64,000 nucleotides of DNA from NCBI GenBank assembly GCA_036501665.1, contig DASXZW010000023.1:7181-71180 (forward strand). The letters run 5' to 3'. Origin of the DNA: Verrucomicrobiia bacterium. GTDB taxonomy: Bacteria; Verrucomicrobiota; Verrucomicrobiia; Limisphaerales; Palsa-1400. The notes under the pieces were generated by a model. The model was not told the DNA's origin and searched no databases. It saw only the letters and a list, made by a program, of their open reading frames with translations. Numbering within the stretch: position 1 is the first letter of the stretch; the number at the start of each line of letters is the position of its first letter. The position numbers were made by a program, and so were the translations under genes. Below, in pieces: positions 8,176 through 63,918 of this stretch.

Positions 8176-8253
8176 AACTTATTCAAAACGGAAAACCATT
8201 TGGACTCAAGCACATGCTGATTCAAGGTTCGACGCGCTTTAGGATTTGAACGC

Positions 8254-10119: not shown

Positions 10120-10142
10120 ATCATCAGGGCGAAACTTACAAT

Positions 10143-11018: not shown

Positions 11019-11283
11019 AGTTTGGGCTAATTGGATTTTGGCCGTTTAATGGATCAGAAATGGATTTTCTGATTTTGACCGGTTACAGACCCTCTTCAAA
11101 ACAACGAGATACTAAGACCCCGTTTTGCGTCCACTCAAGCAACCAATTGTTAAATATTGGCGGCTAGAGCGTTACGAAATTGAAAACCGTTGTCAACCCG
11201 ATTTGTTGAATAGTTACACTTTTGCACTTTTGCAACCGATTCTTACCGTCTGGAAATGTTAGAATCTGAACGCGTCTATTTGC

Positions 11284-11574
11284 ATGTTTCAAGAAGTTCG
11301 GCCAACTTCAATTATGAAAGACCTGACCGATCCTCGATGGATAAAAATCAAGGGTATTCTGTTCTTGTTCGTTGGATTGATTGCCGCCGTGCTGCTCTAT
11401 TTGGAACAACCGGATTTGAAAGTTGCGGTGCTTTTGGCAATAGCGATTTGGTGCTTCTGCCGGTTTTATTATTTCGCGTTTTACGTCATCGAACATTATG
11501 TCGATCCATCCTACCGGTTTTCGGGACTTTGGTCTTTTGCTCATTACTTATTGAACCGACGAAGAGAGCGTTGA
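11284..11574 (+). CDS. small two-TM membrane protein (hypothetical)
   Basis: 96 aa with two clear hydrophobic helices (IKGILFLFVGLIAAVLLYL; VAVLLAIAIWCFCRFYYFAFYVI). Confidence 0.5.
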   Translation: MFQEVRPTSIMKDLTDPRWIKIKGILFLFVGLIAAVLLYLEQPDLKVAVLLAIAIWCFCRFYYFAFYVIEHYVDPSYRFSGLWSFAHYLLNRRRER

Positions 11575-11633
11575 GGAAAAGCATTTATCCCGGAGACGCC
11601 ATCGCCACAAAAAATTAACTTGAGTGAGATTTT

Positions 11634-12728: not shown

Positions 12729-12838
12729 ACTTTTTGCCCAACTTAAAATTGCAGCATCGCGTATGCCACGGGTTGACAAGGCGTCTCCAAGGGTTGACCC
12801 TGCATCCGTTAGGTGACATTCGCGCACAAGTTGTAAAA

Positions 12839-13018
12839 TTGCAACCGTTTGAATCAATTCAGTGCCCATTTTGTGGGCAGGCTTTCGATGTCGCCTTTGA
12901 GTCACAGGAAGGCACTCAAAGGCTTGTCATTGATTGCGAGATTTGTTGCAGACCGCTGGATGTCACGGTTGAATGCGAAGGCGGCGAAGTTCTTAACGTG
13001 GATGTCCGCGCGAATTGA
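12839..13018 (+). CDS. CPXCG-motif cysteine-rich small protein
   Basis: CPFCGQ...DCEICCRPL is the pattern of the ~60 aa CPXCG family. The ORF is open from 12701, but an in-frame TTG at 12839 gives the family-typical length. Confidence 0.55.
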   Translation: MQPFESIQCPFCGQAFDVAFESQEGTQRLVIDCEICCRPLDVTVECEGGEVLNVDVRAN

Positions 13019-13033
13019 TGAAAAGAGAATAAG

Positions 13034-13336
13034 ATGAGCTCAAATATATCTGTATTGGTTTTGTGGATTTACATTGTGCTGCTGCTGGCCGGCGGACTGA
13101 TGGGACTGATCAAAGCTGGAAGCAAAATCTCGCTTGTCACGTCGGCAACTTTTGCTTTGCTGCTGGCGCTTTGCGCGCTGGGGATCATCCGGCCTTTTTA
13201 CGTGGCAGACATTATTCTCGGCGCGCTGGTGCTGGTCTTTGGGATTAGGTTTGCAAAAGGCAAGAAGTTCATGCCGTCCGGAATGATGCTCGGGCTTTCG
13301 GTCGTAGTTTTGGCGGTGTTATTGTTGGTGAAGTAA
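13034..13336 (+). CDS. TMEM14-family small membrane protein
   Basis: 100 aa, 4 predicted TM helices, GGLMGLIKAGSKISL motif typical of TMEM14/UPF0136. Confidence 0.6.
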   Translation: MSSNISVLVLWIYIVLLLAGGLMGLIKAGSKISLVTSATFALLLALCALGIIRPFYVADIILGALVLVFGIRFAKGKKFMPSGMMLGLSVVVLAVLLLVK

Positions 13337-13341
13337 AGTAA

Positions 13342-15900
13342 GTGCAATTCTCTCTTCCGATCTGGGAAATTCACGACTCCATCGTGAATACCCTGCGGAC
13401 CGGGAACCGTCTGGTCCTGGTCGCGCCAACTGGTTCCGGCAAAACGACGCAGGTGCCGCAGATGCTTCTCGACTCTGGTCTTGGCAATGGGCGAATCGTG
13501 GTGTTGCAACCGCGCCGTGTTGCCGCCCGGACTGTTGCCGCGCGGGTCGCTTGGGAACGGCAGGGCAAACTCGGCGCGGAAGTCGGTTATCAAATTCGCT
13601 TCGAGGACCGCACGAGTCTCGGCACGCGCATTTGTTTTATCACAGAAGGAATTCTCCTGCGCTGGCTTCAGGATAATTGCGATCTGAGCGGGATTGACGC
13701 GGTGCTGTTCGATGAATTTCACGAGCGAAATTTGTTGAGCGACGTTGCGTTGGCGCTCGCGAAAAGATTGCAGGAAACGCGACGCCCCGATCTTCGCCTT
13801 GTCGTCATGTCCGCGACGCTTGAAGCCGAGCCGGTCGCGAAATATTTGGGCGATTGCCCGATTGTGGTTTCCGAAGGGAAGGCATTTCCCGTGGAAATCC
13901 GCCACATCGCGACGAACGACGAACGTCCGCTTACCGAGCAAGCCGCCGATATCGTCGGGTACATCGCCGCTTCCGGTGATCCAGGCGATATTCTTGTTTT
14001 CATGCCTGGAATGGGGGAGATCAATGCCACCATCGCCGCTTGCCGGGCCACTGTCGGGACGGAAAAGCTTGCGCTGATTCCGCTTCACGGAGAATTGCCG
14101 CCGGAGGAACAGGACGTGGCGTTTTCGCCGAATCGATTGCGGAAAGTTGTCGTCGCGACAAACGTTGCTGAAACGTCCGTGACCATCGATGGCATCATTC
14201 ACGTCGTCGATAGCGGCGTGGCGCGAGTGGCGCGTTACGACCCGGAGCGCGGCATCGGCACGTTGTTCATCGAGCCGATCAGCCGAGCTTCAGCCGAGCA
14301 GCGCGCGGGCAGGGCGGGTCGCACAGCGCCGGGCGTCTGTCATCGGCTCTGGACCGAAAGCGGGCACTTGAACCGCCCGGCGAAGAATACGCCGGAAATT
14401 CAACGGACCGATCTTGCGGAAGTCGTCCTGCTGCTTCACTCGCTTGGTGTGAGGGATGCGGCGCATTTTGATTGGCTGGATCGCCCTGATCCGCAAGCGG
14501 TCGAGCGGGCAGAGAAATTGCTCAGGACGCTCGGCGCCCTGACTCCGGCTGGAGGCGACGGTGAACATTCGGACATGACGCCGATCGGCTGGGAGATGTT
14601 GAGGCTTCCGATGCACCCGCGTTATTCGCGAATGCTTGTCGAGGCCGCGCGGCGCAACTGCTCTTCTGCGGCGGCGTTGTGCGCGGCGCTCGTCAGCGGA
14701 CGCGATTTGCTGGTTCGCCTGAGCCGAGACGACAAACATATCGCGGAGGCACGGGAGTTATTCGAGGCAAGCGCGGAGTCCGATTTCTACACGTTAATGC
14801 GGGCACATCAATTTGCCCGGAACAATAATTTCAATCCCGACCGATGCCGCCGTTACGGCGTTCACGCGCAAGTCGCCACCCAGGTGCAACAGACTTTCGA
14901 GCAAATCGCGCAAATCGCCCGCGCGGATAAAAACGCCGCGCCGCCGACAGACGATGCGCTCGCGCGCTGCATCACAGCGGGCTTCATCGACCAGCTTTGC
15001 CGCCGTCGCGATCAAGGGACGCTGGACTGTGACGTGGCGGATGGCCGGACGGGAACGCTGGCGCGCGAAAGTGTCGTGCAGAACTCGCCGCTGTTTGTTG
15101 CCGCGAGCATTCGCGAAATTACTGGGCGAACCGGCAATCTCACGCTGCTTGGGTTGGCGACCGCGGTAAAGCGGGAATGGATTCAGGAGATGTTTCCCAC
15201 CCAGGTTTCCGTGCGCGTTGAACACCTTTATGATCGAACCCACAAAAGGGTCAGCGCCGTCAAGTTGGAGCGGTTCCACGATTTGCTGATTCATCACGAA
15301 CATCAGCGCGAATTGGATCCAGCGGCATCGGGGCGGTGTCTCGCGGAAGCTTATGCTGCGCAATATTTCGAATTGCCGCTCTTCAACCATCAACTCAAGC
15401 AGACGATTGCGCGGATCAATCTTGTTTGCGCGGTGATGCCGGAATTGGAATTACCTGCGGCCGACAAAACGTTCATCACGAGCTTTCTCTCGCGCGCATT
15501 TGCCGGGTTGAGTCTTGCGAAAGAGGCGCAAGCGACGCCGTTGGTCGATTCATTTTCCGAATTCTACGGCAAGGAGCGAATCGAATGGCTTGATGAATTG
15601 GCGCCCTTAAATGTCACGTGGCCGGATGGAAAAAAACTCAAGTTGCTCTATTCTGAGGAAACTCTTGATGACGACAGCCATCCGAATCCGCCGGAGTTCC
15701 AAGCGAAGTTGCACGAGTGTTTCGTCTTAAAGGAGCACCCCACAATTTGCGACGGAAAGTTGCCAGTCAAACTCTGGCTCGCGTCGCCGGACGGAAAGCG
15801 GATTGAGTCAACGTTGAACTGGCCGGGCTATCGGACGACCGGTTATCCAAGAATTAAAGCCAAAATGCAGAAAGCATTTCCGTCCTTCACATGGCTGTGA
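13342..15900 (+). CDS. hrpB: ATP-dependent DEAH-box helicase HrpB
   Basis: 852 aa, GTG start. Motifs APTGSGKTTQVPQ, DEFHER, SATL, TNVAETSVTIDG and QRAGRAGR, plus an HrpB-type C-terminal domain. Confidence 0.9.
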   Translation: MQFSLPIWEIHDSIVNTLRTGNRLVLVAPTGSGKTTQVPQMLLDSGLGNGRIVVLQPRRVAARTVAARVAWERQGKLGAEVGYQIRFEDRTSLGTRICFITEGILLRWLQDNCDLSGIDAVLFDEFHERNLLSDVALALAKRLQETRRPDLRLVVMSATLEAEPVAKYLGDCPIVVSEGKAFPVEIRHIATNDERPLTEQAADIVGYIAASGDPGDILVFMPGMGEINATIAACRATVGTEKLALIPLHGELPPEEQDVAFSPNRLRKVVVATNVAETSVTIDGIIHVVDSGVARVARYDPERGIGTLFIEPISRASAEQRAGRAGRTAPGVCHRLWTESGHLNRPAKNTPEIQRTDLAEVVLLLHSLGVRDAAHFDWLDRPDPQAVERAEKLLRTLGALTPAGGDGEHSDMTPIGWEMLRLPMHPRYSRMLVEAARRNCSSAAALCAALVSGRDLLVRLSRDDKHIAEARELFEASAESDFYTLMRAHQFARNNNFNPDRCRRYGVHAQVATQVQQTFEQIAQIARADKNAAPPTDDALARCITAGFIDQLCRRRDQGTLDCDVADGRTGTLARESVVQNSPLFVAASIREITGRTGNLTLLGLATAVKREWIQEMFPTQVSVRVEHLYDRTHKRVSAVKLERFHDLLIHHEHQRELDPAASGRCLAEAYAAQYFELPLFNHQLKQTIARINLVCAVMPELELPAADKTFITSFLSRAFAGLSLAKEAQATPLVDSFSEFYGKERIEWLDELAPLNVTWPDGKKLKLLYSEETLDDDSHPNPPEFQAKLHECFVLKEHPTICDGKLPVKLWLASPDGKRIESTLNWPGYRTTGYPRIKAKMQKAFPSFTWL

Positions 15901-46082: not shown

Positions 46083-46817
46083 TTAGTGTAAGCCGGAACC
46101 GCGATCCGGTGATCCTGATTGGAAAAATAAGTGAAGTAACGCATTATTGCTGACGCCCATTCGTAACGGGACATTGGTTGAATAAACCAATTCCCGCTGA
46201 TTAGTAACGACTAAATACGTACGATCGCAAAGTGACGCGTCTTCAATGGTGAGCCCCATCATTTGCTTGGTTGGACCAAAGATTCCCACTTTGGCGGCGG
46301 TGTAATCCCCTTTGCTCCAGCTAACGTAATACAGAGGAAGGGTTGTTAAATTGCTCCCTTGCTCGCCAAAACGCGCGGGAGGGTCCCGCCAAAAAGACGG
46401 CTGGCCAACGGTCGCTTTGTACTTGGCGTTTAACGCAGCAACATCGACATACACCCGAGACAACCACTGCGTTGCCAGCTGGTAAGCTTCATTTGAGTTA
46501 ATGAGCGAAGGAGTTCCTGCCCACTCGTGATAGCGCTCCACCTCCTCAATGTTAGTTTTTGAGTTCATCACCAAATACAGCTTCCCACTTCGGAAGATGA
46601 ACATAAAGTTGCTGGTTTGGAGGTTTACTGTAGGCATGACCGGCGTATCAAACTGGCCGGGAGGAGCAACGAGGCATCCCGTGATGTCTTTCTGCTCGAC
46701 TGGTTGCGTTGACAGGTTCAACCGCACAGCAATATAATTCGCCGCCGCTACCGCCATTCCAGCCACCACCAACTTGTATGCGACTGAGGTTTTGAGGTGA
46801 CTCAGAATGTCATCCAT
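46083..46817 (-). CDS. hypothetical membrane-anchored protein, tandem paralog A (244 aa)
   Basis: N-terminal TM helix. Collinear and gap-free with 46968..47702, with a nearly identical block GEQGSNLTTLPLYYV.W.KGDY.AAKVGIFGPTKQ. Confidence 0.6.
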   Translation of the reverse strand: MDDILSHLKTSVAYKLVVAGMAVAAANYIAVRLNLSTQPVEQKDITGCLVAPPGQFDTPVMPTVNLQTSNFMFIFRSGKLYLVMNSKTNIEEVERYHEWAGTPSLINSNEAYQLATQWLSRVYVDVAALNAKYKATVGQPSFWRDPPARFGEQGSNLTTLPLYYVSWSKGDYTAAKVGIFGPTKQMMGLTIEDASLCDRTYLVVTNQRELVYSTNVPLRMGVSNNALLHLFFQSGSPDRGSGLH

Positions 46818-46967: not shown

Positions 46968-47702
46968 TTACCGTGTGTCGTTTGTCGGAGACGGCGTGTG
47001 TGGAACGATCTGATTCAACAGGTCACCATTCTTCTCGATCAGCCTCAACGGGAAATTAGTCATTCTCAGAAGTTCCAGCTTATTAGTTACGCATATATAA
47101 GTATGGTCAGTCAGCGTGGGATCCTCAATTGTCAGGCCCGTGAACTGCTTGGTCGGGCCGAAAATTCCAACTTTAGCAGCCTGGTAGTCTCCTTTATCCC
47201 AAGTCACATAGTAAAGCGGCAGGGTGGTCAAATTGCTCCCTTGCTCACCCCATACGGCGGGTGGTGTGGCCCAAAACTGTGGCTGTCCGACATGCATCTT
47301 ATACTTCCTATTGAGCGCGTTTACATCCACGAAGACATGGGAGAGCCAATTGGTCGCAAGATGGTACGCGTCATTCGAGTTGATAAGCGAGGGAATATGC
47401 GCCCATTCGCGATGATGCTCCACAGATTCAATGTTTGTTTGTGTATTCACCACGCCATGCAGCTTTCCGTCCCGGAAAATAAACGTGAATTGTGTCGTTT
47501 CAAAGTTTACCACGGAAGGGCAACCTGGAACGCTATCCAAACGCGGAGACGAGATATATGTGCCAATAATATCTTTTGGTTCGATGCCTTTTGGGCAAAC
47601 TCCAGGCCACTCAACAATGTGGTTCATCGCCGAAAGCACCAATCCTGTCACCGCCATCTTGTAAGCGATGGTAGTCTTGAGTGTTGCAAACGAATTTGTC
47701 AT
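46968..47702 (-). CDS. hypothetical membrane-anchored protein, tandem paralog B (244 aa)
   Basis: Same length and architecture as 46083..46817. Confidence 0.6.
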   Translation of the reverse strand: MTNSFATLKTTIAYKMAVTGLVLSAMNHIVEWPGVCPKGIEPKDIIGTYISSPRLDSVPGCPSVVNFETTQFTFIFRDGKLHGVVNTQTNIESVEHHREWAHIPSLINSNDAYHLATNWLSHVFVDVNALNRKYKMHVGQPQFWATPPAVWGEQGSNLTTLPLYYVTWDKGDYQAAKVGIFGPTKQFTGLTIEDPTLTDHTYICVTNKLELLRMTNFPLRLIEKNGDLLNQIVPHTPSPTNDTR

Positions 47703-50913: not shown

Positions 50914-51639
50914 ATGCATCGAGTATTCGGAAGATTAGTGAATACGCAGACAAAACCCCGTCATCATGCGCCATACGCAGTCTGGCTGGCGCTGGCTGTG
51001 TTGGCTGGCACTGTAACATTCATTTTGGCCTTCCAGACGTCGCATCCCAGACTGCCAGTTTACCAGGGCAGGAATCTTTACGAATGGATCGCGCTTCTTG
51101 ACAAGGCCGCCGATCTTCATCCCGCTGACTTTGAGGCAGCGGCGGCGGCCCAATCCGCCATTCGAGCCATCGGAACGAACGCGATTCCGTTTGCAATGGC
51201 GAATCTTGATACGCGCGTCACGGGTATTGATCTGCTGCTCGGCTGGTTGGCCAAACATGCGCGGTTCGTCAACGTCCAACGTAGAGATGTGAGTGAACGA
51301 TGGAAGCTTGGCGCTCAGATCCTCGACATTCTTGGTCCCATTAACGAGCCATATCTGCCGCAGTTGATCGCGAGAGCGACCAATAATCCCGGCTATTCCG
51401 AAGAAGCCATGCTTGCCGTAGGTGAAGCGGCTTTACCGGCATTCACTAATCTCGTCCGTAAGACGCAGTTTCCGGAAACGGGCATTTTGATCAGAACTTT
51501 TACGCGAACCTATTTTTTCTCCGGGCTAAAGCCTGGCTCGGCGGCTGTAGTTTTGCCGTGTCTAACGGACATGGCGCAATCCAAAGATCCAGACGCGGCC
51601 AGAGCTGCCTCTGAGGCCATAAATGCCTTTCGGCATTAG
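50914..51639 (+). CDS. hypothetical membrane-anchored helical-repeat protein
   Basis: N-terminal TM helix (AVWLALAVLAGTVTFILAF), then an alpha-helical, HEAT-like region. Confidence 0.45.
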   Translation: MHRVFGRLVNTQTKPRHHAPYAVWLALAVLAGTVTFILAFQTSHPRLPVYQGRNLYEWIALLDKAADLHPADFEAAAAAQSAIRAIGTNAIPFAMANLDTRVTGIDLLLGWLAKHARFVNVQRRDVSERWKLGAQILDILGPINEPYLPQLIARATNNPGYSEEAMLAVGEAALPAFTNLVRKTQFPETGILIRTFTRTYFFSGLKPGSAAVVLPCLTDMAQSKDPDAARAASEAINAFRH

Positions 51640-51686
51640 TTTAGAGCATTTTAAGTGCAACTGTAGCCACAAATTTTGGTGCGGCA

Positions 51687-51823
51687 GGGGAGCGCGACCG
51701 TCTCGGTCGCATCCGTCGGCGTCTCGCCGACGGAACAATCCAGCACTGCTGCGGCGTGTAAAATATTCGACAAGAGCGTCTGGCGAGACGCCAGACGCGG
51801 CGGTCGAGACGACCGCGCTCCCC
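51687..51823. repeat. 137 bp nested palindromic intergenic element
   Basis: Outer imperfect inverted repeat GGGGAGCGCGACCGTCTCG (51687..51705) and CGAGACGACCGCGCTCCCC (51805..51823). Inner perfect hairpins CCGTCGGCG-TCT-CGCCGACGG (51713..51733) and GCGTCTGGCG-AGA-CGCCAGACGC (51776..51798). Confidence 0.7.
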
Positions 51824-52170
51824 CACAGGCCGTCCGAACCGGGCTGCTACAGCTTAAGTTAAACTGCTCTAGACACAGGGTTTCTCGCGTCTTCGCTTGC
51901 CACCGCAATTGAACTTCTTGAATCGCCGCGGCGTGAAAATAATAGCTGCAATCCACCTTCAGATTGGGCGAAGTCGAGGCACGTGGCATTCCTTATTCTC
52001 AATACTTACAGAAATGATGGATTCGGGCTTTTCGTTGACTGCATGCACAAGTATGATCGCGACTAGCGAAGCCAAACTGCGATGAACATTTGGGAACTTG
52101 CGCCTCAAAATCCTGACCTAGCCTTCGCGAAAGGCTGGTCAAGGCTTTGAAGTCTCACTAATCTCGCGGG

Positions 52171-53580
52171 ATGCTGCTGACGTTGACGACAACGCATCAA
52201 CCTGCGACCGATTTGGGTTATTTGCTGCGCAAAAATCCAGCGCGCCCGCAGTCGTTTGAGCTTTCGTTTGGCAGAGCGCACGTTTTTTACCCCGAAGCAA
52301 GCAACGAACGGTGCGCTGTTGCTTTGCTCGTTGAAGTTGATCCCGTTGGATTGGTGCGGAACCGTCGCGGGCCCTCTGGCGAAGGCGGCGCTTTGGAGCA
52401 ATACGTCAATGATCGACCCTACGCGGCTTCATCGTTTTTGAGTGTGGCGATTGCCGATGTATTTGGCACTGCGTTGGCCGGCAACAGCAAGGAACGGCCG
52501 GACTTGGTGGACGCGCCAATACCACTGCATGTTGCGTTTTCCGCGCTGCCTTGCCGTGGAGGCGAGCAGTTTTTAAGAAAGCTGTTTGAGCCGCTTGGCT
52601 ACAACGTCACTGCAACGCGTTTGCCGTTGGATGACCGATTTCCTGATTGGGGTGAAAGCGCCTATTTTCGGGTTGAATTGGCTGCGACTTTGCCGCTTAA
52701 ACAACTTCTCAGTCACCTTTACGTCCTTGTGCCGGTGCTGGACAACGACAAGCATTATTGGGTTGGCGATGATGAAGTGACGAAGCTGATGCGCCACGGT
52801 GAAGACTGGCTGGGCGCGCATCCCGAACGCGAGGCCGTTGCGCGCCGCTATCTTAAACATCAACGCAGTCTTGTGGATGACGCCCTTACTCAACTGGGTG
52901 ATGAAAGCGAGCCGGACCCGGATTTTGTTGCTGAGTCTCATGCGCAAGAAGAAGAGGCCATAGAAAAGAACATCAGCCTGAACGAACAGCGGCTTGGTTC
53001 TGTAATCGCAGCGCTCAAAGGCAGTAATGCGGCGCGAGTTTTGGACCTGGGCTGCGGTGAAGGCCGGCTCTTGCAATTGTTGCTGAAGGAAAAGCAATTT
53101 GCCGAAATCATCGGCATGGATGTTTCTCATCGCGCGCTGGAAATCGCCAAGGACCGTTTGCATTACGACCGTATGCCTCCCCTGCAAAAGGAACGCCTGC
53201 GCTTGATGCACGGTTCATTAATTTACCGGGACCAGCAACTGGCGGGTTTTGATGCCGCCGCAGTGGTGGAGGTTATTGAGCATCTTGACCCGCCTCGGTT
53301 GGCTGCTTTTGAGCGAGTGTTATTTGAATGCGCGGGGCCTGCGACCATCGTGGTTACGACGCCCAATCGTGAATACAACGTGAAATGGGAAACGCTGCCT
53401 GCGGGCAAATTCCGTCATCGCGACCATCGGTTCGAGTGGACGCGAGCGGAGTTTCAGGAGTGGGCGAACCGCGTGGCTGCTAATTCAGGCTACAAAGCTC
53501 GATTCCTCCCAGTTGGCCCGGAAGATTCGACCGTTGGTTCACCGACGCAAATGGCGATTTTCACCCGGTTCGTGCAATGA
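52171..53580 (+). CDS. hen1: 3'-terminal RNA ribose 2'-O-methyltransferase Hen1 (bacterial type)
   Basis: 469 aa. Characteristic bacterial Hen1 N-terminus MLLTLTTTHQPATDLGYLLRKNP...F.LSFG.AHVFYPEA. C-terminal SAM-MTase motif VLDLGCGEGRLL and EVIEHLD. Confidence 0.85.
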   Translation: MLLTLTTTHQPATDLGYLLRKNPARPQSFELSFGRAHVFYPEASNERCAVALLVEVDPVGLVRNRRGPSGEGGALEQYVNDRPYAASSFLSVAIADVFGTALAGNSKERPDLVDAPIPLHVAFSALPCRGGEQFLRKLFEPLGYNVTATRLPLDDRFPDWGESAYFRVELAATLPLKQLLSHLYVLVPVLDNDKHYWVGDDEVTKLMRHGEDWLGAHPEREAVARRYLKHQRSLVDDALTQLGDESEPDPDFVAESHAQEEEAIEKNISLNEQRLGSVIAALKGSNAARVLDLGCGEGRLLQLLLKEKQFAEIIGMDVSHRALEIAKDRLHYDRMPPLQKERLRLMHGSLIYRDQQLAGFDAAAVVEVIEHLDPPRLAAFERVLFECAGPATIVVTTPNREYNVKWETLPAGKFRHRDHRFEWTRAEFQEWANRVAANSGYKARFLPVGPEDSTVGSPTQMAIFTRFVQ

Positions 53581-55205
53581 AACGGTTATCAAAACAAACC
53601 TGGGATTTGATTCACAAATTGCATGACGATCGAGGTTTTCTGGGTAAGTTGATCGGACGGCAAGAAGCACCGTTATCTGTATTCGATGAAATTGCGTCAT
53701 CAAATGAGTCTCTTGCCATTCCATATCTCACTTCATTTTTGTTAAATAAACAAAACGATGTTCGCAACGCGGCGGCTAGAACGATAGGCCATTTAATTGA
53801 CAACCTGAAACTGAGTGACTTTGCGCAATTAGATGAGGCTTCCAGAAAATACTGGCCGTGCGAATCGTCTGAACCGTCCCAATGGCGTCACATAAAACCA
53901 CATGAGGTAAAACAATTGTGGCGCCTTCCGAATCCAACATCCGTAATTGGCATAACGAGCTTTCATGGTAGCGGATACATTCGTGAGGCAGCAGTTAAAG
54001 AGTTGGCAAATAATTTCGATGGTTCAGAAATGCCTTTTTTGCTCATTCGTTTGAATGATTGGGTGAGTGAAGTTCGTGAAATGGCGGAAACTGCAATTTT
54101 GCAACGCATTCGGTCAGAGTATGCGAGGCACTTCCTGAGAAATTTGCATCTCGTTTTTCGACTGCGTTCATGTGGGCGCAGCCACGATGCTAAAATTGTT
54201 TCTGGCGTCATTGCCTTGCTTCAAGAACCCGGACTCGCACCAATACTTCGCGAAGGCACTCTGTCAACCGACGGTTGGCTTCGCCGTGAATCTTTTAAAA
54301 TAGCGCTCGCGGTAAAATCAGAGCACCGCATAGCTCTTCTCAAAGAGGTGCTTTCGGATGCAGACCCAACAATGCGGCTTTGGGCTGCGCGCCACGTCCT
54401 GCCGCAATTAAATGATGTTGACTTGTTGCCGGTTGTGACTGGCCTAACTCAAGACCGTTCCATGCCTATCCGTTGCGAGGCATTGAGCGTTTTTGTGCAA
54501 CGTTTTCCGAGTGAAAGTCCAGGGAAGCTAAACATCGCCTTGTTGGATGCTTCCTCGTCGGTCCGTGCTACCGCGCGCTTTTGGATCAAAACACAAAATC
54601 CACAATTTAACTTTGCCGAGGTATATAGGAAGTCACTGACCGACTGCACCTCAAAACAGGTGCGCGCCGCGATTCTCGGTCTCGGAGAAACGGGAACTGT
54701 TACTGATGCAGAAGCCGTATTGCCATTTATTGAGGGCCCCGCAGTGGGCATTCAAAAAGCTGCGATTCATGCGCTTGCGGCTCTCGACGGAGATCGCAAT
54801 GTGCCCCACTTTCTCACTGCATTAACGAATGAACATCCCGGAATTTCCAATGAGGCTTCGCGTGCGCTTGACAAAAGAACCTTTTCAATTTTGGATCAAC
54901 TTTACTCGATTTTTAGGAGTCAAAAAACGCTGCACGTCAGAACAAATGTTTTTAAGCTGATGATGAATCTCAACTTTTGGGAGCGAGGTGTTTTTCTGTT
55001 TGAGGCGCTTCGAGATCGGGATGAAAAAATTATCGAGCTTGGGAGTCGTGCATTACGACTTTGGCTCCTCAAATCACGAAATATTGCGACGCCTCCCAGT
55101 AAAAGCGTTCTTAAGCACCTTAACAACGCGCTGAAAGCATCGGCAGGAATGCTCGAATCCCCTGACGTTCGAGAATTTGAATTTTTACTGCGCAGTTTCA
55201 AATGA
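53577..55205 (+). CDS. HEAT/ARM-like repeat protein of unknown function, translationally coupled between hen1 and pnkp
   Basis: 542 aa. ATGA start/stop overlaps occur at both ends (53577..53580 and 55202..55205). Recurrent HEAT-like helical motifs: DVRNAAARTIGHL, IREAAVKELAN, DPTMRLWAARHVL, MPIRCEALSVF, SSSVRATARFW, QVRAAILGLGE, IQKAAIHALAAL, ISNEASRAL. Confidence 0.75.
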   Translation: MKRLSKQTWDLIHKLHDDRGFLGKLIGRQEAPLSVFDEIASSNESLAIPYLTSFLLNKQNDVRNAAARTIGHLIDNLKLSDFAQLDEASRKYWPCESSEPSQWRHIKPHEVKQLWRLPNPTSVIGITSFHGSGYIREAAVKELANNFDGSEMPFLLIRLNDWVSEVREMAETAILQRIRSEYARHFLRNLHLVFRLRSCGRSHDAKIVSGVIALLQEPGLAPILREGTLSTDGWLRRESFKIALAVKSEHRIALLKEVLSDADPTMRLWAARHVLPQLNDVDLLPVVTGLTQDRSMPIRCEALSVFVQRFPSESPGKLNIALLDASSSVRATARFWIKTQNPQFNFAEVYRKSLTDCTSKQVRAAILGLGETGTVTDAEAVLPFIEGPAVGIQKAAIHALAALDGDRNVPHFLTALTNEHPGISNEASRALDKRTFSILDQLYSIFRSQKTLHVRTNVFKLMMNLNFWERGVFLFEALRDRDEKIIELGSRALRLWLLKSRNIATPPSKSVLKHLNNALKASAGMLESPDVREFEFLLRSFK

Positions 55206-57742
55206 AAATTACCGTTCCCGAGCTTTCCTTCGTTGTGTTGATCGGGGTGTCCGGTTCGGGCAAAAGCACGTTTGCTCGGAAACATTTCAAAACCACGGAA
55301 ATTCTTTCTTCGGATTATTGTCGGGGCCTGGTGTCGGATGATGAAAATTCGCAGGCGGCGACACGCGACGCATTTGAAGTTTTGCATTTTATCGCCCGCA
55401 AACGGTTGGCGGCCGGGAAACTTACCGTGGTTGATGCGACGAATGTGCAACCTGAATCGCGCAAATCACTTGTTCAAATTGCGCGTGAGTTTCATTGCTT
55501 GCCAGTGGCCATTGTCCTTGACGTGCCAGAGAGGGTGGCGCACGACCGGAACAAGACTCGTCCTGACCGCAATTTTGGCCCGCACGTCATTCGGCAGCAA
55601 GCGCAGCAGTTGCATCGTTCCATGCGCGGGCTTGAGCGCGAAGGGTTTCGCCATGTCTTCGTTCTCAGATCATTGGAAGAAGTCGAGGCCGTGGTCATTG
55701 AGCGACAGCCGTTGTGGAACAACTTGAAGAACGAGCATGGGCCGTTCGATATCATAGGCGATGTGCATGGGTGTTTCGATGAACTTTTCGAATTGCTTGC
55801 CCTGTTGGGTTACGCGGAGCAACCGGGGGGAGGCTGGAACCATCCTGACGGACGCAAGCTCGTGTTCGTCGGTGATTTGGTTGATCGAGGCCCCAAGATT
55901 CCCCAAGTCCTAAAATTGGCGATGAGCGCTGTTGCAAGCGGAGGGGCTTTTTGTGTTCCCGGCAATCACGACGTAAAGCTGATGCGGAAGTTGCGCGGGA
56001 AAGATGTTCAAATCACGCATGGGCTTGGCGAATCTCTGGCACAACTTGCCGCCGAGTCTGATGAATTTCGCAAACAGGTTGGCGATTTCATTGACGACCT
56101 GGTCAGTCATTATGTTTTCGACGACGGCAAGCTCGTAGTCGCGCACGCAGGCATGAAGGAATCCATGCAGGGGAGAGGCTCCGGCGCTGTGCGGGAATTC
56201 GCGCTCTTCGGTGAAACTACCGGCGAGACCGATGAGTTTGGATTGCCGGTGCGTTATAATTGGGCCGCCGAATATCGAGGGGCAGCGATGGTGGTTTATG
56301 GACATACGCCGGTCCCGGAACCTGCGTGGCTCAACCGGACAATCAACATTGATACGGGTTGTGTTTTTGGGGGAAAGCTGACGGCTTTGCGGTATCCCGA
56401 AAAGGAACTGGTTTCAGTTCCTGCAAAAAATACTTACGCGGAATCGCGCAAGCCATTTTTGCCTGCCGAAACACAGGCGCCGGTTTTATCCGCGCAACAG
56501 CAGCAGGACGATTTGCTTGACCTTGCCGATGTGACGGGCAAACGGATCGTCGGGACGCGTTTGCATGGCAATGTAACCATTCGCGAGGAGAACGCCACTG
56601 CGGCTCTGGAAGTGATGAGCCGGTTCGCCGCGAATCCAAAGTGGCTGATTTATCTGCCGCCCACGATGTCGCCGAGCGAAACAAGCAGTGCGCCGGGTCT
56701 TTTGGAGCATCCTGCCGAAGCGTTTGCTTATTTTCGCCATGCCGGTGTGCCGCGAGTTGTCTGCGAGGAAAAACATATGGGGTCGCGGGCGGTGGTTATC
56801 GTCTGTCGTGATGAGGAGGCTGTGCGGAAAAGTTTTGGGGTGACGGGCGAAGGCATTGGCATCTGTTATACGCGCACGGGCCGGCGTTTTTTTGACGACG
56901 CAAACCTGGAGCGGGAATTTCTCACCCACGTTCAAACTGCCGCCACCTCAGCCGGATTTTGGGATGAATTCAAAACCGGATGGCTTTGTCTCGATTGCGA
57001 ACTCATGCCCTGGTCTGTAAAAGCGCAGGAATTGTTGAAACAACAATACGCCTCGGTTGGCGCATCGGGGCGCGCTTCGCTAACGGAAGAAGTTTCCACC
57101 CTTGAACGAGCCGCATCATCCGGCCTGGACGTGAGTGAGTTGCTTGCCCGCACGATTTCTCGCCGACAAATGATGGGCGATTACATTGAAGCCTATCGTC
57201 GATATTGCTGGCCGGTAAAATCGGTGAACGATCTCAAACTCGCGCCGTTTCATTTGCTGGCAACCGAAGGCTCAGTTCATGCGGACAAACCGCACACCTG
57301 GCACATGGAAATGCTCGCGCGGCTGGCTGGAGGCATCATCGTTGCCACACCGTTTCATGTCATTGATTTGACTGATTCCAAGAGCGAAGCGGAAGGCGTT
57401 CATTGGTGGGAACAACTCACCGGGCGCGGCGGCGAAGGGATGGTCGTCAAGCCGCTTGATTTCATTGTCAAGGGACGGCGCGGTCTTGTCCAACCCGCTG
57501 TGAAGTGTCGTGGCCGCGAATATCTCCGTATTATTTATGGCCCGGAATACACGGCGGAGGAGAATTTGGAACGGCTCCGTTCCCGGGGACTTTCGACAAA
57601 GCGGTCGCTGGCTTTGCGGGAATTCGCGCTCGGCATCGAGTCGCTTGAACGCTTTGTCCGAAAGGAACCGTTGCGACGTGTTCACGAGGCCGTGTTCGGC
57701 GTGCTTGCTTTGGAAAGCGAACCGGTTGACCCGCGATTGTAG
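55202..57742 (+). CDS. pnkp: polynucleotide kinase-phosphatase with C-terminal ligase/adenylyltransferase domain (Pnkp)
   Basis: 846 aa. Kinase P-loop GVSGSGKST. Calcineurin-type phosphatase motifs GDVHGC, GDLVDRGP, GNHD, GHT. Nucleotidyltransferase lysine motif CEEKHMGSRAV. Confidence 0.9.
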   Translation: MKITVPELSFVVLIGVSGSGKSTFARKHFKTTEILSSDYCRGLVSDDENSQAATRDAFEVLHFIARKRLAAGKLTVVDATNVQPESRKSLVQIAREFHCLPVAIVLDVPERVAHDRNKTRPDRNFGPHVIRQQAQQLHRSMRGLEREGFRHVFVLRSLEEVEAVVIERQPLWNNLKNEHGPFDIIGDVHGCFDELFELLALLGYAEQPGGGWNHPDGRKLVFVGDLVDRGPKIPQVLKLAMSAVASGGAFCVPGNHDVKLMRKLRGKDVQITHGLGESLAQLAAESDEFRKQVGDFIDDLVSHYVFDDGKLVVAHAGMKESMQGRGSGAVREFALFGETTGETDEFGLPVRYNWAAEYRGAAMVVYGHTPVPEPAWLNRTINIDTGCVFGGKLTALRYPEKELVSVPAKNTYAESRKPFLPAETQAPVLSAQQQQDDLLDLADVTGKRIVGTRLHGNVTIREENATAALEVMSRFAANPKWLIYLPPTMSPSETSSAPGLLEHPAEAFAYFRHAGVPRVVCEEKHMGSRAVVIVCRDEEAVRKSFGVTGEGIGICYTRTGRRFFDDANLEREFLTHVQTAATSAGFWDEFKTGWLCLDCELMPWSVKAQELLKQQYASVGASGRASLTEEVSTLERAASSGLDVSELLARTISRRQMMGDYIEAYRRYCWPVKSVNDLKLAPFHLLATEGSVHADKPHTWHMEMLARLAGGIIVATPFHVIDLTDSKSEAEGVHWWEQLTGRGGEGMVVKPLDFIVKGRRGLVQPAVKCRGREYLRIIYGPEYTAEENLERLRSRGLSTKRSLALREFALGIESLERFVRKEPLRRVHEAVFGVLALESEPVDPRL

Positions 57743-58942: not shown

Positions 58943-59109
58943 TAAATTCGCCGGCGAAGAGGCTAACAGCGGGCCGTATTCTCATTTCTCCCCGGGTCTG
59001 GCTTAAAACCATCGCCAAAAATGTTGTTTGAAGCTTGACATAAAGATCGAAAATGTTAGCGTCGAATTCGCGTTTGTCTCTCCCCCACGAGACGAAAGTT
59101 GAGTTTAAA

Positions 59110-62100
59110 ATGAAGAAAAACCACCGAGCGCGGAACACTCCGCGAGTCTTCAATTTATTGAATTGCCGCGCCCGGCTTGGAAGATTTTTTTCGACCTTCA
59201 TCCTTTACGTGACATTGGTGACGGTTGTCGGCGCTGGTGCGGCTGAGATTCCCCAGTTTTTTCATGAGGCGCTGGTTGCGGTGGGCGGCACGCCTGCACA
59301 AAGTGAAACGGATGATCTGAAAAGTGCGCTCACTGCTTTTTCCGCTTCCAAGTCAAGTGGGCAGCCGGATTGGAGCACACTTTCCAGCTTTCTCGCGAGC
59401 CATCCGCAATCGCCTTGGAACGCCTCGTTGCTTCTGAACCTTGGCGAGGAATATTATCAGAATGGATACTTTTCCCGCGCGATGGACGCGTGGCAACAGT
59501 CCTGGAATTCGTCAAAATCGGCCCCCGACCCCATAGGACAGGCTGTTGCGAATCGCGCGGTGGCGCAGCTTTTGAGAATGCAGTGCCGCATCGGTCTTTT
59601 GCAGGATGTGAAGTCATTGCTGGGGCAAGTCGGAGATCGGAACTTTCGCGGATCCACGGCGGAAATGATCGAAACTTCGCGGCAAAGCCTTTGGATGATG
59701 GAGAACCATCCGGAGGTGACCTATCGTTGCGGTCCTCACGCGCTTGAACGAATTTTGCTTTATTCCAAACCGCAGGATGCCGCGCCGTTGGAGTTGGTGA
59801 AATCGGTTTCCGGCACGAACGGCATTCCTCTTTGTGACGTTGCTGTTTTGTCCAAGAAAGTCGGACTTAATTACCAAATGGCGAAACGAACCGGCAACGC
59901 CGCCATTCCCGTACCGTCGGTCGCGCATTGGAAACTCAACCATTACGGGGCTGTGCTTAAGCATGAAGGCGGGCGTTATCTGCTGGATGACCCGACCTTT
60001 GGCAATGGCTTGCTCTGGATAACGCAGGATGCGCTGGATTCTGAGAGCGACGGCTATTTTCTCATTCCAAACGGAGAATTGCCACGAGGCTGGAACGCGG
60101 TGGATGCGACTGAAGGCGGGCAAGTTTGGGGGCGCGGATATCCGCCGGACGATGATCCGGGTTCGGATGGCCCCCCAGACACCAGCATCCCCGTTAAGCC
60201 CAAAAAAAATCCTCCGCCCGGAACCCCGAATGATCCCTGCAAAAAGGGCATGGCGCAGTGGAACATTTTCCTGATGATGGCGGATCTGGCCATGTCCGAT
60301 TCGCCTGTTGGCTATAATCCGCCTGTCGGTCCGCCTATTTATTTTAATGTGCAGTATAGCCAGCAGGCATCCGATCAACCCGCCGTCTTTACTTACGGGA
60401 ATCTTGGACCGCTTTGGAATTGCGATTGGATCAGTTCGCTCACTTTTGACACGGCCAATGCCTATTACCATCGCGGACAGGGCGGCGTGGAACAGTTTCC
60501 TGGTTACAATCCCGCAACGCAGACTTATCAACAAAGCCTCGAAGAGGCGGATAGCCTGGTTCAAATCAACGCGACGAACTACCAGATATTGCGCCCTGAT
60601 GGCGGCAAACTCATTTTTTCGTTGCCGGACAATCCCGGCGCGCCTTCGCGGATTTTCATGACGGCGGTGGTGGACCCTCAAGGAAATGCCGCGACGTTGG
60701 CCTATGACATGTATTTCCGCCTGACGGGAATTACTGATGCCATCGGCCAGACCACCACGATTTCCTACGGCAGCGGCACCAATTCCTATCTTGTTCAGAA
60801 AGTCACTGACCCGTTCGGGCGTTTCGCCACGTTCTCATACAACTCCGCCGGCGAATTGACGAACATCACCGACGTGCTTGGCATGAGTTCGGCCTTTACG
60901 TATGGAACCAGCGATGCGCTTCAAACATTAACCACGGGCTACGGCATGACAACCTTCGCCGTGGGAACGACCAATAATAATCGCTTCGTTGAAATCACTG
61001 AACCCGACGGCGAACAGGAACGGGCGGAGCAGGGGAATGGCGCGACACCGGGAGTCTCATATACGGACCCATTGAACACAGTCCCTGCGGGGATTTTGGC
61101 GTTTAACCAATATCTCGATGGCCGCGACACCTATTTCTGGGACCGCGCGGCGATGGCTCAGGCTCACGGAATTTATTCCGACGCGAAAATTTATCATTTC
61201 ATGCATCAGGATTTGAATACCCGTTCGCCTCTTCTTGAAAGCCTCAAGATGCCCTCGCAAAACCGCATCTGGTACAATTATCAGGGGCAAAACAGCAGCG
61301 CGTTCTACAACTACGGAATGTTCGGCGGCGCGCCGTCGAAAATCGGCGTTGTGTTGGACGACGGGCAGACGCAATTGACGCAGACCAGTTTTAACTCGCT
61401 GGGCGCGGTCACTCAGGAAGTTGATCCTGTTGGCCGCACTCAAAACTACATCTACGCGTCAAATAACATCGACCTGGTGCAAGTCCAGCGGTTGACCGGC
61501 CCAAGTCAGCTTGAACCAGTGGCGAGCTTTACGTGGAACAGTTCGCATCTGCCGTTGACAATAACCGACGCCTCCGGCCAGACGACGACTTACACCTATA
61601 ACTCTCAAGGTCAGCCGTTGACAGCCAGCAATGCCAAAGGTCAAACCACGACTTTTGGCTACAATTCGAGCAACTATCTTGTTTCGATCCAGGGGCCGCT
61701 TGGCGCTACGGACATCGTGAATCTCACTTATGACGCATTTGGAAGGGTTCATACGATCACGGATGTCGGAGGGTATATTTTGACCTACGGTTACGACGCC
61801 CTCGATCGACTTACCAACGTAAGCTATCCTGATGGAACTTTTGTTGCGCGGACCTACAATCTGCTTGATCCAGCTACCTACAAGGATCGGCGCGGTCGAT
61901 TGACCTCCTATGCCTACGATTCGCTTCGGCAACTGGTGTCACTTAGTGATCCTTTGGGGCGCGTCACTCATTATCAATGGTGCGGTTGCGGTTCGTTAAG
62001 CTCCGTCATTGATCCGTTGGGCCGTATAACACAATGGACGCATGATCCGTTTGGTCGGTTGACAGCCAAGATTTATCCTGATGGAAACGCCGAAACTTAT

Positions 62101-63918
62101 AACTACGATTCAGCCGGGCTGTTGAAGTCCATAACAGATCCGAACGGCTCAACCAAATTGATTGCTCACGGCCTGGATAATTTAGTGACTTCAATTTCTT
62201 ACGTAAACTCGGGGGTTCCGACGCCCACCGTTGAGTATGTCTATGATCCCTGGTTTCCTCGCGTGTCAGAGCGCATTGATGGCGCTGGGATAACATTGTA
62301 TAACTACAACCCGATCACTGGCTCGACTTCCCTTGGCGCAGGCCAGTTGCAATCCATCGACGGCCCGCTCCCAAACGACACCATTACTTACAACTACGAT
62401 GAATTGGGCCGCACAACGACCCGGACAATCGGCGGTGTCGCTGAGAATGTGGTTTACGATGCCTTGGGCCGCATCGCATCTGATAATAATGCCCTTGGCA
62501 TGTTCACTTATGCTTATGTTGGGGCAACACCCCAATTAGCATCTATTTCCTCTCCCAACGGGCAAAGCACGCAGTTCAGCTATTTTCCAAATATCGCGGA
62601 TCGCCGTCTTAAAGAATTGTGGAATCAGGGGCCAGCCGGCGTGACCTTGTCGAAGTTTGACTATGTATACGACTCGGATGGCTTTGTGACTACATGGACA
62701 CAACAGAATGGCTCTGGAATCCCGACGCAGGCCACCCCCTCCTATGATCTTGCGGATCGGTTGACGGGCGTAACGACCGGCAGCGCGACTTACAGCTACA
62801 CCTACGACAACGCTGATAATCGCCTGACTGACACCACTAACGGAATGGAAACCACATGCTCCTACAACTCCTTGAACCAGCTCATTAGCCTGTCAACAAA
62901 TATTGAGACTGGCCGCGTCTATCAATGGGACGCAGAAGGCCGCCTCACCTCGATCGATTACCCACCCACAGGGAAGAGCACCGAATTCACCTACGATGGT
63001 CTGAGTCATTGCGTGCGCGTGGTCGAAGAATCTGATGGAAACATCACCAGCGACAAGCATTTCATCTGGTGCAACGAACGCATTTGTGAAGTCTGCGACG
63101 CGACCGGCGCTGCGACGAATCTTTACTTTGCTCAAGGCGCTCAAATTGTTTCCGGCCCGAACGCCGGCAAATATTATTATGCACTGGATCGCCTGGGTAG
63201 CATCACTGAATTGACCGACTCTTCCGCCAACGTGCGGGCTGATTATCAATATGATCCGTGGGGACAGCGAATAAAGCTTAGCGGCAATCTGGATGCCGAT
63301 TTTGGATTTACAGGCTACTATTTTCACGCGCCTAGTGCGATGAACTTTGCGCCATTGCGCGTTTATGATCCCGCGTTGGGGAGATGGCTTAGCCGTGATC
63401 CGGTGCTCAGAATGGGAGGAGGCGCGAACACCTATGCCTATGCCGATAACAATCCCATTAACAAGTTAGATCCTTTAGGCGCGGACACTGTTTATGTAGG
63501 AGTTTATAATACGACAATCGGCGGCGTCCCAATCCCGGAAGGCCACGCCTCGATCGATACCGGAGATGGATACACAGGATTTTATCCTGACCCGAATGTG
63601 GGCGCGTTTAATGCAAATGGCGCCCCAACTTCCACCGGGTTGGTCCGGGATCCCAATAGCGGCGAGAATCAATCGCCGCAGTTTGTCATCCCTATTTACA
63701 ACGTGACGCCCGACCAAATCCAGAAAATGAACGATTACATAAAGCAGGTGCAGAGTGACCCCTGCTTGAGGCAATACAATCTGCTGAACAATAACTGCGC
63801 GGGCTTTGTTCGCGCCGTCCTTGGCGCGGGCGGGATCAACATCGGCGGGTCGCAAAGTCCGCTGGGTGTTTTGATTGGCGGCAGCATCCAAAGCGGTCTT
63901 TCATCATTGGGACCCTAA
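59110..63918 (+). CDS. RHS/YD-repeat polymorphic toxin with N-terminal C39-like cysteine peptidase domain
   Basis: ATG at 59110 (ORF open from 59053), with an N-terminal TM/signal segment. C39-like triad context: YRCGPHAL, NHYGAVL, LDDP. Many YD repeats (YDALGR, YDSLRQ, YDELGR, YDGLSH ...). RHS core end is YAYADNNPINKLDPLG, followed by a 144 aa tip. Confidence 0.9.
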   Translation: MKKNHRARNTPRVFNLLNCRARLGRFFSTFILYVTLVTVVGAGAAEIPQFFHEALVAVGGTPAQSETDDLKSALTAFSASKSSGQPDWSTLSSFLASHPQSPWNASLLLNLGEEYYQNGYFSRAMDAWQQSWNSSKSAPDPIGQAVANRAVAQLLRMQCRIGLLQDVKSLLGQVGDRNFRGSTAEMIETSRQSLWMMENHPEVTYRCGPHALERILLYSKPQDAAPLELVKSVSGTNGIPLCDVAVLSKKVGLNYQMAKRTGNAAIPVPSVAHWKLNHYGAVLKHEGGRYLLDDPTFGNGLLWITQDALDSESDGYFLIPNGELPRGWNAVDATEGGQVWGRGYPPDDDPGSDGPPDTSIPVKPKKNPPPGTPNDPCKKGMAQWNIFLMMADLAMSDSPVGYNPPVGPPIYFNVQYSQQASDQPAVFTYGNLGPLWNCDWISSLTFDTANAYYHRGQGGVEQFPGYNPATQTYQQSLEEADSLVQINATNYQILRPDGGKLIFSLPDNPGAPSRIFMTAVVDPQGNAATLAYDMYFRLTGITDAIGQTTTISYGSGTNSYLVQKVTDPFGRFATFSYNSAGELTNITDVLGMSSAFTYGTSDALQTLTTGYGMTTFAVGTTNNNRFVEITEPDGEQERAEQGNGATPGVSYTDPLNTVPAGILAFNQYLDGRDTYFWDRAAMAQAHGIYSDAKIYHFMHQDLNTRSPLLESLKMPSQNRIWYNYQGQNSSAFYNYGMFGGAPSKIGVVLDDGQTQLTQTSFNSLGAVTQEVDPVGRTQNYIYASNNIDLVQVQRLTGPSQLEPVASFTWNSSHLPLTITDASGQTTTYTYNSQGQPLTASNAKGQTTTFGYNSSNYLVSIQGPLGATDIVNLTYDAFGRVHTITDVGGYILTYGYDALDRLTNVSYPDGTFVARTYNLLDPATYKDRRGRLTSYAYDSLRQLVSLSDPLGRVTHYQWCGCGSLSSVIDPLGRITQWTHDPFGRLTAKIYPDGNAETYNYDSAGLLKSITDPNGSTKLIAHGLDNLVTSISYVNSGVPTPTVEYVYDPWFPRVSERIDGAGITLYNYNPITGSTSLGAGQLQSIDGPLPNDTITYNYDELGRTTTRTIGGVAENVVYDALGRIASDNNALGMFTYAYVGATPQLASISSPNGQSTQFSYFPNIADRRLKELWNQGPAGVTLSKFDYVYDSDGFVTTWTQQNGSGIPTQATPSYDLADRLTGVTTGSATYSYTYDNADNRLTDTTNGMETTCSYNSLNQLISLSTNIETGRVYQWDAEGRLTSIDYPPTGKSTEFTYDGLSHCVRVVEESDGNITSDKHFIWCNERICEVCDATGAATNLYFAQGAQIVSGPNAGKYYYALDRLGSITELTDSSANVRADYQYDPWGQRIKLSGNLDADFGFTGYYFHAPSAMNFAPLRVYDPALGRWLSRDPVLRMGGGANTYAYADNNPINKLDPLGADTVYVGVYNTTIGGVPIPEGHASIDTGDGYTGFYPDPNVGAFNANGAPTSTGLVRDPNSGENQSPQFVIPIYNVTPDQIQKMNDYIKQVQSDPCLRQYNLLNNNCAGFVRAVLGAGGINIGGSQSPLGVLIGGSIQSGLSSLGP

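Follow-up and report, generated by a model that had tools for sequence, protein, structure and literature searches.

In a 64,000-nucleotide stretch of a Verrucomicrobiia bacterium contig (DASXZW010000023.1; hereafter the window), we analysed a Pnkp/Hen1 RNA-repair cassette that carries an additional, uncharacterised and widely shared accessory: a gene for a 542-amino-acid (aa) HEAT-repeat protein, placed between hen1 and pnkp, whose family we call HEAT-540. Members of this family are recurrently and polyphyletically linked to two mechanistically unrelated repair systems, Pnkp/Hen1 and RtcB/RtcA, as well as to Ro, RtcR, HNH genes and tRNA arrays. We tentatively favour the reading that HEAT-540 is a fast-evolving, non-catalytic adaptor or scaffold common to different RNA-repair ligase systems, probably binding substrate RNA.

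The three genes of the window cassette are co-directional and joined by two ATGA overlaps:

51640..52170, + strand: non-coding stretch of ~530 nucleotides (nt) upstream of hen1, with no + strand open reading frame (ORF) of 80 aa or more
52171..53580, + strand: hen1, 469 aa, RNA 3'-terminal ribose 2'-O-methyltransferase
53577..53580, + strand: ATGA overlap of the hen1 stop and the HEAT-gene start, a signature of translational coupling
53577..55205, + strand: HEAT-repeat gene of the HEAT-540 family, 542 aa, 1,629 nt, proposed non-catalytic accessory or adaptor
53958..54107, + strand: most conserved HEAT-540 block, residues 128-177, SFHGSGYIREAAV...LLIRLNDWVSEVREMAETAILQRIR, with invariant columns in alignment A1
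54336..54917, + strand: PBS-lyase-type HEAT repeats, residues ~254-447, matched by alphaRep/PBS-HEAT designed proteins (E 1e-36 to 1e-11) and Pfam HEAT_2
55202..55205, + strand: ATGA overlap of the HEAT-gene stop and the pnkp start
55202..57742, + strand: pnkp, 846 aa, trifunctional 5'-kinase, 2',3'-phosphatase and adenylyltransferase (ligase)

An earlier sequence-only reading of this DNA had described a full Hen1 and a full Pnkp split by a 542-aa HEAT ORF, and this description held throughout: its coordinates are exact, both ATGA overlaps can be read directly from the sequence, and both enzymes match their equivalog models in full. Window Hen1 matches NCBIfam TIGR04074 (bacter_Hen1) at 726.5 bits against a cut-off of 340, with the N-terminal Pnkp-ligase-activating domain at residues 1-242 (Pfam Hen1_L, 378 bits), C-terminal S-adenosylmethionine methyltransferase domains at residues 283-434 (Pfam) and the motifs VLDLGCGEG and EVIEHL in its translation. 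Window Pnkp matches TIGR04075 (bacter_Pnkp) over its full length (1447 bits, residues 1-846), comprises Pfam AAA_33 (kinase), Metallophos and PNKP_ligase domains, the last at 610 bits over residues 467-841, and has the motifs GVSGSGKST (P-loop), GDVHG, GDLVDRG, GNHD and KHMGS. Judged by these domains and motifs, both enzymes look complete and would together perform standard bacterial RNA repair, that is, heal, seal and 2'-O-methylate. They share a strand and an operon but are not adjacent, being separated by the 1,629-nt gene, and the cassette is a variant of the bacterial Pnkp/Hen1 cassette rather than the canonical arrangement. The 4-nt overlaps suggest that all three genes are co-translated.

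The middle protein belongs to a family that existing models do not single out. It matches only generic HEAT models in Pfam (HEAT_2 best, at 55.5 bits); Pfam, NCBIfam and PADLOC contain no HEAT-540-specific model, and source records label members 'HEAT repeat protein' or 'hypothetical'. Because a protein 100% identical to this one has been recorded from a Verrucomicrobiae metagenome-assembled genome and full-length homologues extend down to ~30% identity, the ORF is not a chance one. A word-indexed search returned 38 matches, with 1215 bits for the protein against itself and 849 to 132 bits for 37 relatives, and an exhaustive profile search returned 2,422 representative clusters at E<=1e-30, the top 150 nearly all full length. 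By these sequence comparisons HEAT-540 is a large, unnamed, length-conserved family of ~540 aa. Its signature combines the N-half motif SxHGxGxxREAA...LLxRLNDWV with C-terminal W468, W496 and P507; the window protein, the first sequence of alignment A1, has all invariant columns. As LLxRLNDWV also seeded our genome scan, its 100% conservation is partly ascertainment. The block at residues 128-177 is conserved over 62 members from all three classes of genomic context, and conservation of the same residues in every class argues for one family and presumably one molecular activity.

AlphaFold2 confidently models the window protein as an all-helical alpha-solenoid, predicted to be non-catalytic, with a mean pLDDT of 90.2, ~35 helices, no strands and helix up to the C-terminus. 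Its tandem PBS-type HEAT repeats, recognized from sequence, place it in a repeat class and are uninformative on function; in a profile search of the Protein Data Bank (PDB) only residues ~254-447 matched, leaving the N-terminal half with no solved structure among the matches. The isoelectric point (pI) is 9.41, and medians lie at 9.1-9.6 in all context classes of the family. Such a basic pI is unusual for HEAT scaffolds, those of the PR65 type being acidic, and would fit nucleic-acid binding. Two other readings were considered and rejected: a bilin lyase or phycobilisome role (NblB and lyase models score 22 bits against a 300-bit cut-off, in a verrucomicrobial host with RNA-repair neighbours), and a phage or plasmid origin of the family (no phage matches, one marginal viral contig, and only orphan copies on megaplasmids).

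We then asked which genes accompany HEAT-540. A scan of species-representative genomes seeded with the family motif yielded 63 loci (numbered with an L below, as are the other loci compared), which span Verrucomicrobiota, Acidobacteriota, Planctomycetota, Gemmatimonadota, Myxococcota, Paenibacillus, Clostridium, Cyanobacteria and others. The HEAT gene adjoins rtcB and/or rtcA in 14 of these loci, one with the order rtcR<Ro>rtcB>HEAT..rtcA, and hen1/pnkp in six, two of them Ro>HEAT>hen1>pnkp. Unbiased clustering of neighbouring ORFs at 66 loci found only RtcB (14), Hen1 (9), Pnkp (7), RtcA (6), Ro, RtcR and HNH to be recurrent. Relative to a generous background, rtcB at 14/62 loci corresponds to P ~3e-19 and hen1 at 6/62 to P ~2e-8, with events that are not fully independent. 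A neighbour-joining tree places Pnkp/Hen1 linkage in at least five lineages and RtcB linkage in at least four, with one hen1-linked member (L006) nested inside an RtcB-linked clade. The cassettes with hen1 and/or pnkp take the following forms:

hen1>HEAT>pnkp: L001, L010, L011, L022, L042, L079
RlaP-hen1-HEAT-pnkp: L001, HEAT protein 50% identical to that of the window, with the same 4-nt overlaps on both sides
rtcB>rtcA>hen1>HEAT>pnkp: L008, HEAT protein 40% identical
hen1-HEAT, then contig end: L006, HEAT protein 35% identical
hen1>MoxR>VWA>HEAT>pnkp: L007, HEAT protein 33% identical
Ro>HEAT>hen1>pnkp: L041, L052

A 4-nt hen1/HEAT overlap is also called in L001 and L008/L009, and a HEAT/pnkp overlap in L001 and L007. 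The position of the HEAT gene varies, being before hen1, between hen1 and pnkp, or before or after rtcB. The sequence-only reading had held that homologues without linkage to hen1 and pnkp would speak against an accessory role; the linkage is kept down to ~30% identity in at least five lineages, so the proposal came through that challenge. Its further suggestion, an accessory subunit of an RNA-repair or anti-ribotoxin system, stands in part: the gene is a conserved, co-oriented cassette member, but it is not specific to Pnkp/Hen1, with rtcB/rtcA at 14 scan loci versus hen1/pnkp at 6, and a presence in only 2-3 of the 75 hen1 loci described below.

Arrays of 3-17 tRNA genes (ARAGORN) adjoin the HEAT gene at six loci, often together with HNH genes, and the HEAT-540 genes at these arrays are rtcB-linked, except in L052, where the gene lies with Ro-hen1-pnkp:

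L018:4114-9211, tRNA array
L046:1374-3595 and 11604-15096, tRNA arrays
L014:2798-5593, tRNA array
L063:8647-9303, tRNA array
L015:69-482, tRNA array
L052:1196-1524, tRNA array

HEAT-540 may act at the level of the substrate. If it is an adaptor, coupled translation would yield the protein alongside the enzymes, its extended helical surface would hold an RNA-protein particle or broken RNA, tRNA being the likeliest, and it would present this substrate to the repair enzyme encoded beside it, Pnkp/Hen1 in the window and RtcB/RtcA elsewhere. In this reading we infer co-expression, physical association with the enzymes, RNA binding and substrate selection.

The HEAT protein also diverges much faster than Hen1 and Pnkp in every cassette compared. 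Hen1/Pnkp identities to the window proteins of 91/88% accompany 66% for the HEAT protein in L010, 77/77% accompany 51% in L001, 80/83% accompany 40% in L008, and 83/84% accompany 57% in a further cassette. Base composition sets the gene apart as well: its GC content in the window is 0.468, versus 0.552 for hen1 and 0.551 for pnkp, and its third-codon-position GC (GC3) is 0.433 versus 0.572 and 0.582. That the middle gene is AT-richer had already been pointed out, with a count of 19 G+C in the 60 nt at 53701..53760 that is exact. This is not special to the window: the HEAT gene has a lower GC3 than its neighbours in 13/13 cassettes over GC backgrounds from 0.47 to 0.72, making AT-richness a general property of the gene in this slot. 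A short, unrelated HEAT gene in the same slot also has a low GC3 (0.406 versus 0.57).

Several observations weigh against a shared adaptor. Repair-linked copies (hen1/pnkp or rtcB/rtcA) make up ~26 of ~72 HEAT-540 loci, about one third; the other two thirds or so are stand-alone, which indicates that no repair enzyme has HEAT-540 as an obligate subunit. Foldseek searches of the PDB returned generic HEAT solenoids only (PP2A-A, also called PR65; SF3B1; CAND1; karyopherins) at TM scores of 0.3-0.4 and 11-17% identity. No fusion of HEAT-540 with a repair enzyme occurs among the top search matches. The invariant arginines, which we considered as evidence of RNA binding, had to be set aside, most of them being the canonical structural 'VR' arginines of PBS-type HEAT repeats. 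To these points the converse view, from hen1 outwards, adds three more. Among 80 metagenome hen1 loci with 63-93% identity to window Hen1, 75 were informative, and hen1 directly abuts pnkp (gap <200 nt) in 56 of them; only two, probably three, of the 75 (~3-4%) carry HEAT-540, so Pnkp/Hen1 does not need it; and clearly unrelated cargo (PIN, HicB, a minus-strand DGQHR gene, DUF2268-type and unassigned proteins) occupies the same junction, so slot position alone proves little. Inserts were found at 19/75 junctions and are of at least nine unrelated kinds, including:

HEAT-540: L079; L137 (hhalign probability 98.9%); L083 (a 17-aa trace at the end)
RlaP: 5 loci, L087, L089, L106, L113, L135
MoxR-VWA: 1 locus, L115
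PIN-domain (VapC-type) toxin: 2 loci
HicB-like antitoxin: 1 locus
minus-strand gene with a DGQHR (DndB-like) motif: 1 locus, L075:1800-3729, - strand
396-aa protein without Pfam match: L074:1769-2956, one of two unassigned inserts
SWIM zinc-finger protein: 1 locus, L129:5879-7255
DUF2268/GldB-like protein: 1 locus, L127:2257-3336
shorter PBS-type HEAT protein of 230-285 aa: L073:9407-10264; L080:9407-10099; L078:4585-4923

The hen1|pnkp junction serves as an accessory slot of variable content. The PIN toxin and HicB-like antitoxin genes lie at L104:3494-3919, L110:4737-5180 and L076:3025-3249; each PIN insert is a potential tRNA-cutting toxin encoded within a tRNA-repair cassette. The gaps of L074 and L075 hold other genes, and no decayed HEAT gene was found in either. 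Both ligase systems can also share one locus, as in L143 (Ro-rtcB-rtcA-hen1-pnkp) and in L115, where a co-oriented 'mega-operon' at 1869-13048 runs Ro - YrlA - rtcB - rtcA - RlaP - hen1 - MoxR - VWA(DUF2201) - pnkp; its Y-RNA-like YrlA, at 3646-3757 (Rfam, 77 bits), was found only beside Ro in this locus.

The closest known relative of the window cassette is L073, with Hen1 and Pnkp 93% and 89% identical as proteins and 87% and 83% as DNA. It differs in its middle gene, and neither flank aligns with the window, indicating that the middle gene has been exchanged and that the cassette sits at different genomic places. The 285-aa HEAT protein encoded there is not a truncated HEAT-540 (hhalign probability 8.6%), and the presence of an unrelated HEAT protein in L073, L078 and L080 suggests that the slot calls for a solenoid-type partner.

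Exchange of this kind can also be read another way, in which the protein faces toxins instead of RNA: the solenoid would bind, sense or neutralise a ribotoxin (a secreted RNase, a VapC-type tRNase or an anticodon nuclease), and damage prevention would be encoded beside damage repair. Divergence well ahead of Hen1 and Pnkp, the swap for an unrelated HEAT protein in L073 and the lower GC3 in 13/13 cassettes form a combination typical of conflict-interface genes; PIN toxins and a HicB antitoxin fill the same slot elsewhere, two of four sampled stand-alone copies lie in toxin-antitoxin-rich islands, and an RHS-repeat protein is encoded 1.3 kb downstream of the window cassette. We nevertheless consider this unlikely. 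Typical immunity proteins are far smaller than the 540 aa of HEAT-540, no toxin gene is among the recurrent neighbours, and alpha-solenoids evolve fast anyway; conservation of the same residues across phyla points to a conserved ligand over a diversifying one, and the basic pI suits RNA better than it suits basic RNase toxins.

Tight translational coupling with both enzymes would equally accommodate a regulator or assembly factor, whether an activator, an inhibitor that keeps the ligase inactive as long as there is no damage, or a chaperone that helps the complex to assemble. Archease, which activates RtcB, is a precedent for a small protein cofactor encoded with its RNA ligase (PMC3973293), and the top fold match, PP2A-A, scaffolds a calcineurin-type phosphoesterase, the superfamily of the Pnkp phosphatase domain. 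That match is generic for HEAT solenoids, at a TM score of ~0.3, and most Pnkp/Hen1 and most RtcB operons are without HEAT-540. Above all, HEAT-540 partners two unrelated ligases that are unlike in fold and chemistry, ATP-dependent Pnkp and GTP-dependent RtcB, which is hard to reconcile with an enzyme-specific cofactor and leaves a regulator distinctly improbable. We likewise give little credence to the gene as a passenger, in which hen1|pnkp and similar junctions would be insertion hot spots and the HEAT gene cargo unrelated to RNA repair: the 19/75 junction inserts of at least nine unrelated kinds (a minus-strand gene included), the non-syntenic flanks of the closest cassette, the low GC3 that suggests a separate history and the stand-alone majority of members all suit it, but chance insertion leaves unexplained why, in other phyla, the gene has repeatedly and independently come to lie with rtcB, rtcA, Ro, RtcR and tRNA arrays, why its position varies and why the 4-nt start/stop overlaps are conserved on both sides.

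Stand-alone copies have tightly coupled neighbours that are heterogeneous, and four further members sampled independently of the motif are all stand-alone. Two stand-alone copies lie in toxin-antitoxin-rich islands with RES-Xre, PhdYeFM, PIN, HicB and HTH genes (L158:1-12096 and L160:1-15536). Others lie beside DNA-alkylation repair genes of the Ada/AlkA type at two Gemmatimonadaceae loci (L057:8450-9925 and L058:8312-9790) or within a few kb of DinB (L029, L040 and L050); this nucleic-acid-damage theme is weak and possibly coincidental.

Around the window cassette, the genes are ordinary chromosomal content: FG-GAP/ASPIC, TPR, acyltransferase and RHS-repeat proteins. The stretch at 51640..52170 presumably serves the three-gene operon as promoter or regulatory region; a scan of it for the sigma-70 promoter consensus gave nothing above shuffle expectation on the + strand, as did a terminator scan. 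No Rfam or ARAGORN tRNA match was found near the cassette, and the window contains a single tRNA-Gly, 33 kb away, and no tRNA array. PADLOC defence models gave the cassette proteins no significant match, only weak partial ones: HEAT-ARM_XIII for the HEAT protein (24 bits, to part of a 1972-position model), mad2 for the Hen1 methyltransferase domain (44 bits) and mad3 for the P-loop (17.5 bits). A 241-aa ORF at 50914-51639 (+ strand), which ends ~530 nt 5' of hen1, has an N-terminal hydrophobic segment and is without Pfam, NCBIfam or PADLOC match. On the other side, 1.3 kb 3' of pnkp, the 1,621-aa RHS-repeat protein is encoded at 59053-63918 (+ strand); its C-terminal ~200 aa, after a DPLGA-type motif, have no significant Pfam match (PPPDE/Peptidase_C97 only, E 0.009), and the protein is a possible polymorphic toxin whose tip is undescribed. 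Farther upstream, at 46083-46817 and 46968-47702 (both - strand), are tandem 244-aa paralogues, 57% identical (E 2e-94); both have a hydrophobic segment at the N-terminus, and neither matches Pfam.

How Pnkp/Hen1 and RtcB work as enzymes is well established, whereas their cellular substrates and how these are found are largely open. A non-catalytic protein repeatedly and independently recruited to both ligase types and to tRNA arrays is therefore a handle on substrate choice. A bolder form of the adaptor reading, possible although less likely than not, is that HEAT-540 is a dedicated recognition module for broken tRNA or damaged translation machinery, common to ATP-dependent Pnkp/Hen1 and GTP-dependent RtcB and travelling with tRNA L-arrays, with stand-alone copies acting in trans. 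If so, its RNA ligands would reveal what bacterial RNA repair acts on physiologically, an answer long sought. Pull-down of HEAT-540 should show the RNAs or particles it holds, and cultures of Paenibacillus, Archangium and Hydrogenophaga offer members for cloning, which opens the hypothesis to direct tests. Independently of function, the variable hen1|pnkp slot changes how such cassettes should be annotated.

Full-text searches of the literature found no description of a HEAT partner of hen1/pnkp; a passing mention in Burroughs & Aravind 2016 (NAR 44:8525) is possible. The canonical Pnkp/Hen1 systems of Clostridium thermocellum and Anabaena variabilis resemble the window cassette in their full-length TIGR04074 and TIGR04075 equivalogs, with hen1 upstream and co-oriented, but there hen1 abuts pnkp, whereas the window adds a 1.6-kb gene coupled to both; reconstitution of the canonical system used just two proteins (PMC4411300; PMC12776372). 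The Pnkp1-Rnl-Hen1 system of Capnocytophaga gingivalis is, like the window cassette, a three-gene variant that contains Hen1, but there the third component is a ligase separated from Pnkp, and hen1 is not linked to the others (PMC4411300). In the window, by contrast, Pnkp retains its ligase domain, the third protein is a predicted non-catalytic solenoid, and that protein matched no ligase or nucleotidyltransferase model in Pfam, NCBIfam or PADLOC. The sequence-only reading was thus right that the HEAT protein is not the Rnl partner, as the 610-bit PNKP_ligase match bears out.

Other accessories use the same position. The RlaP nucleotidyltransferase (PF10127) and MoxR-vWA occupy the same slot or flank (MoxR-VWA in L115 and L007, RlaP upstream in L001) and occur with several types of ligase (PMC12776372). 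Both belong to named families of enzymes or ATPases, whereas HEAT-540 has neither a dedicated model nor a functional name. PBS-lyase HEAT proteins and the PP2A A-subunit (PR65) resemble the window protein at the level of repeat or fold class only. A further parallel is the Anabaena tRNA L-array/HNH/rtcB neighbourhood, which is reported to respond to translational stress by induction, as do hen1-pnkP and VapC tRNases (PMC8421152). It is like the tRNA array-HNH-HEAT-rtcB-rtcA arrangement of verrucomicrobial and other members (L014, L015, L018, L046 and L063), and differs from the window, which has no tRNA array. The text of that article examined mentions no HEAT protein. Its hypothetical gene all4315, which shares the regulation of the tRNA array and rtcB, is not detectably related to HEAT-540: a search with the cyanobacterial family member as query found no Nostoc or Anabaena protein.

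A last comparison is with Ro60/Rsr of rtcR-ro-rtcB-rtcA operons. The window protein is not itself a Ro/TROVE-like ring, having no TROVE, vWA_Ro60 or VWA match and no Ro60 among its top 50 Foldseek matches, whereas the true Ro of L067 matches TROVE and vWA_Ro60/VWA. Nor is HEAT-540 a substitute for Ro, because the two share an operon in L041, L052 and L067. Ro is a HEAT-repeat ring that serves as an RNA-binding partner in rtcBA operons and binds damaged or misfolded RNA (PMC3854526). As a helical-repeat, non-catalytic protein encoded in RNA-repair operons, it offers the best functional analogy for HEAT-540.

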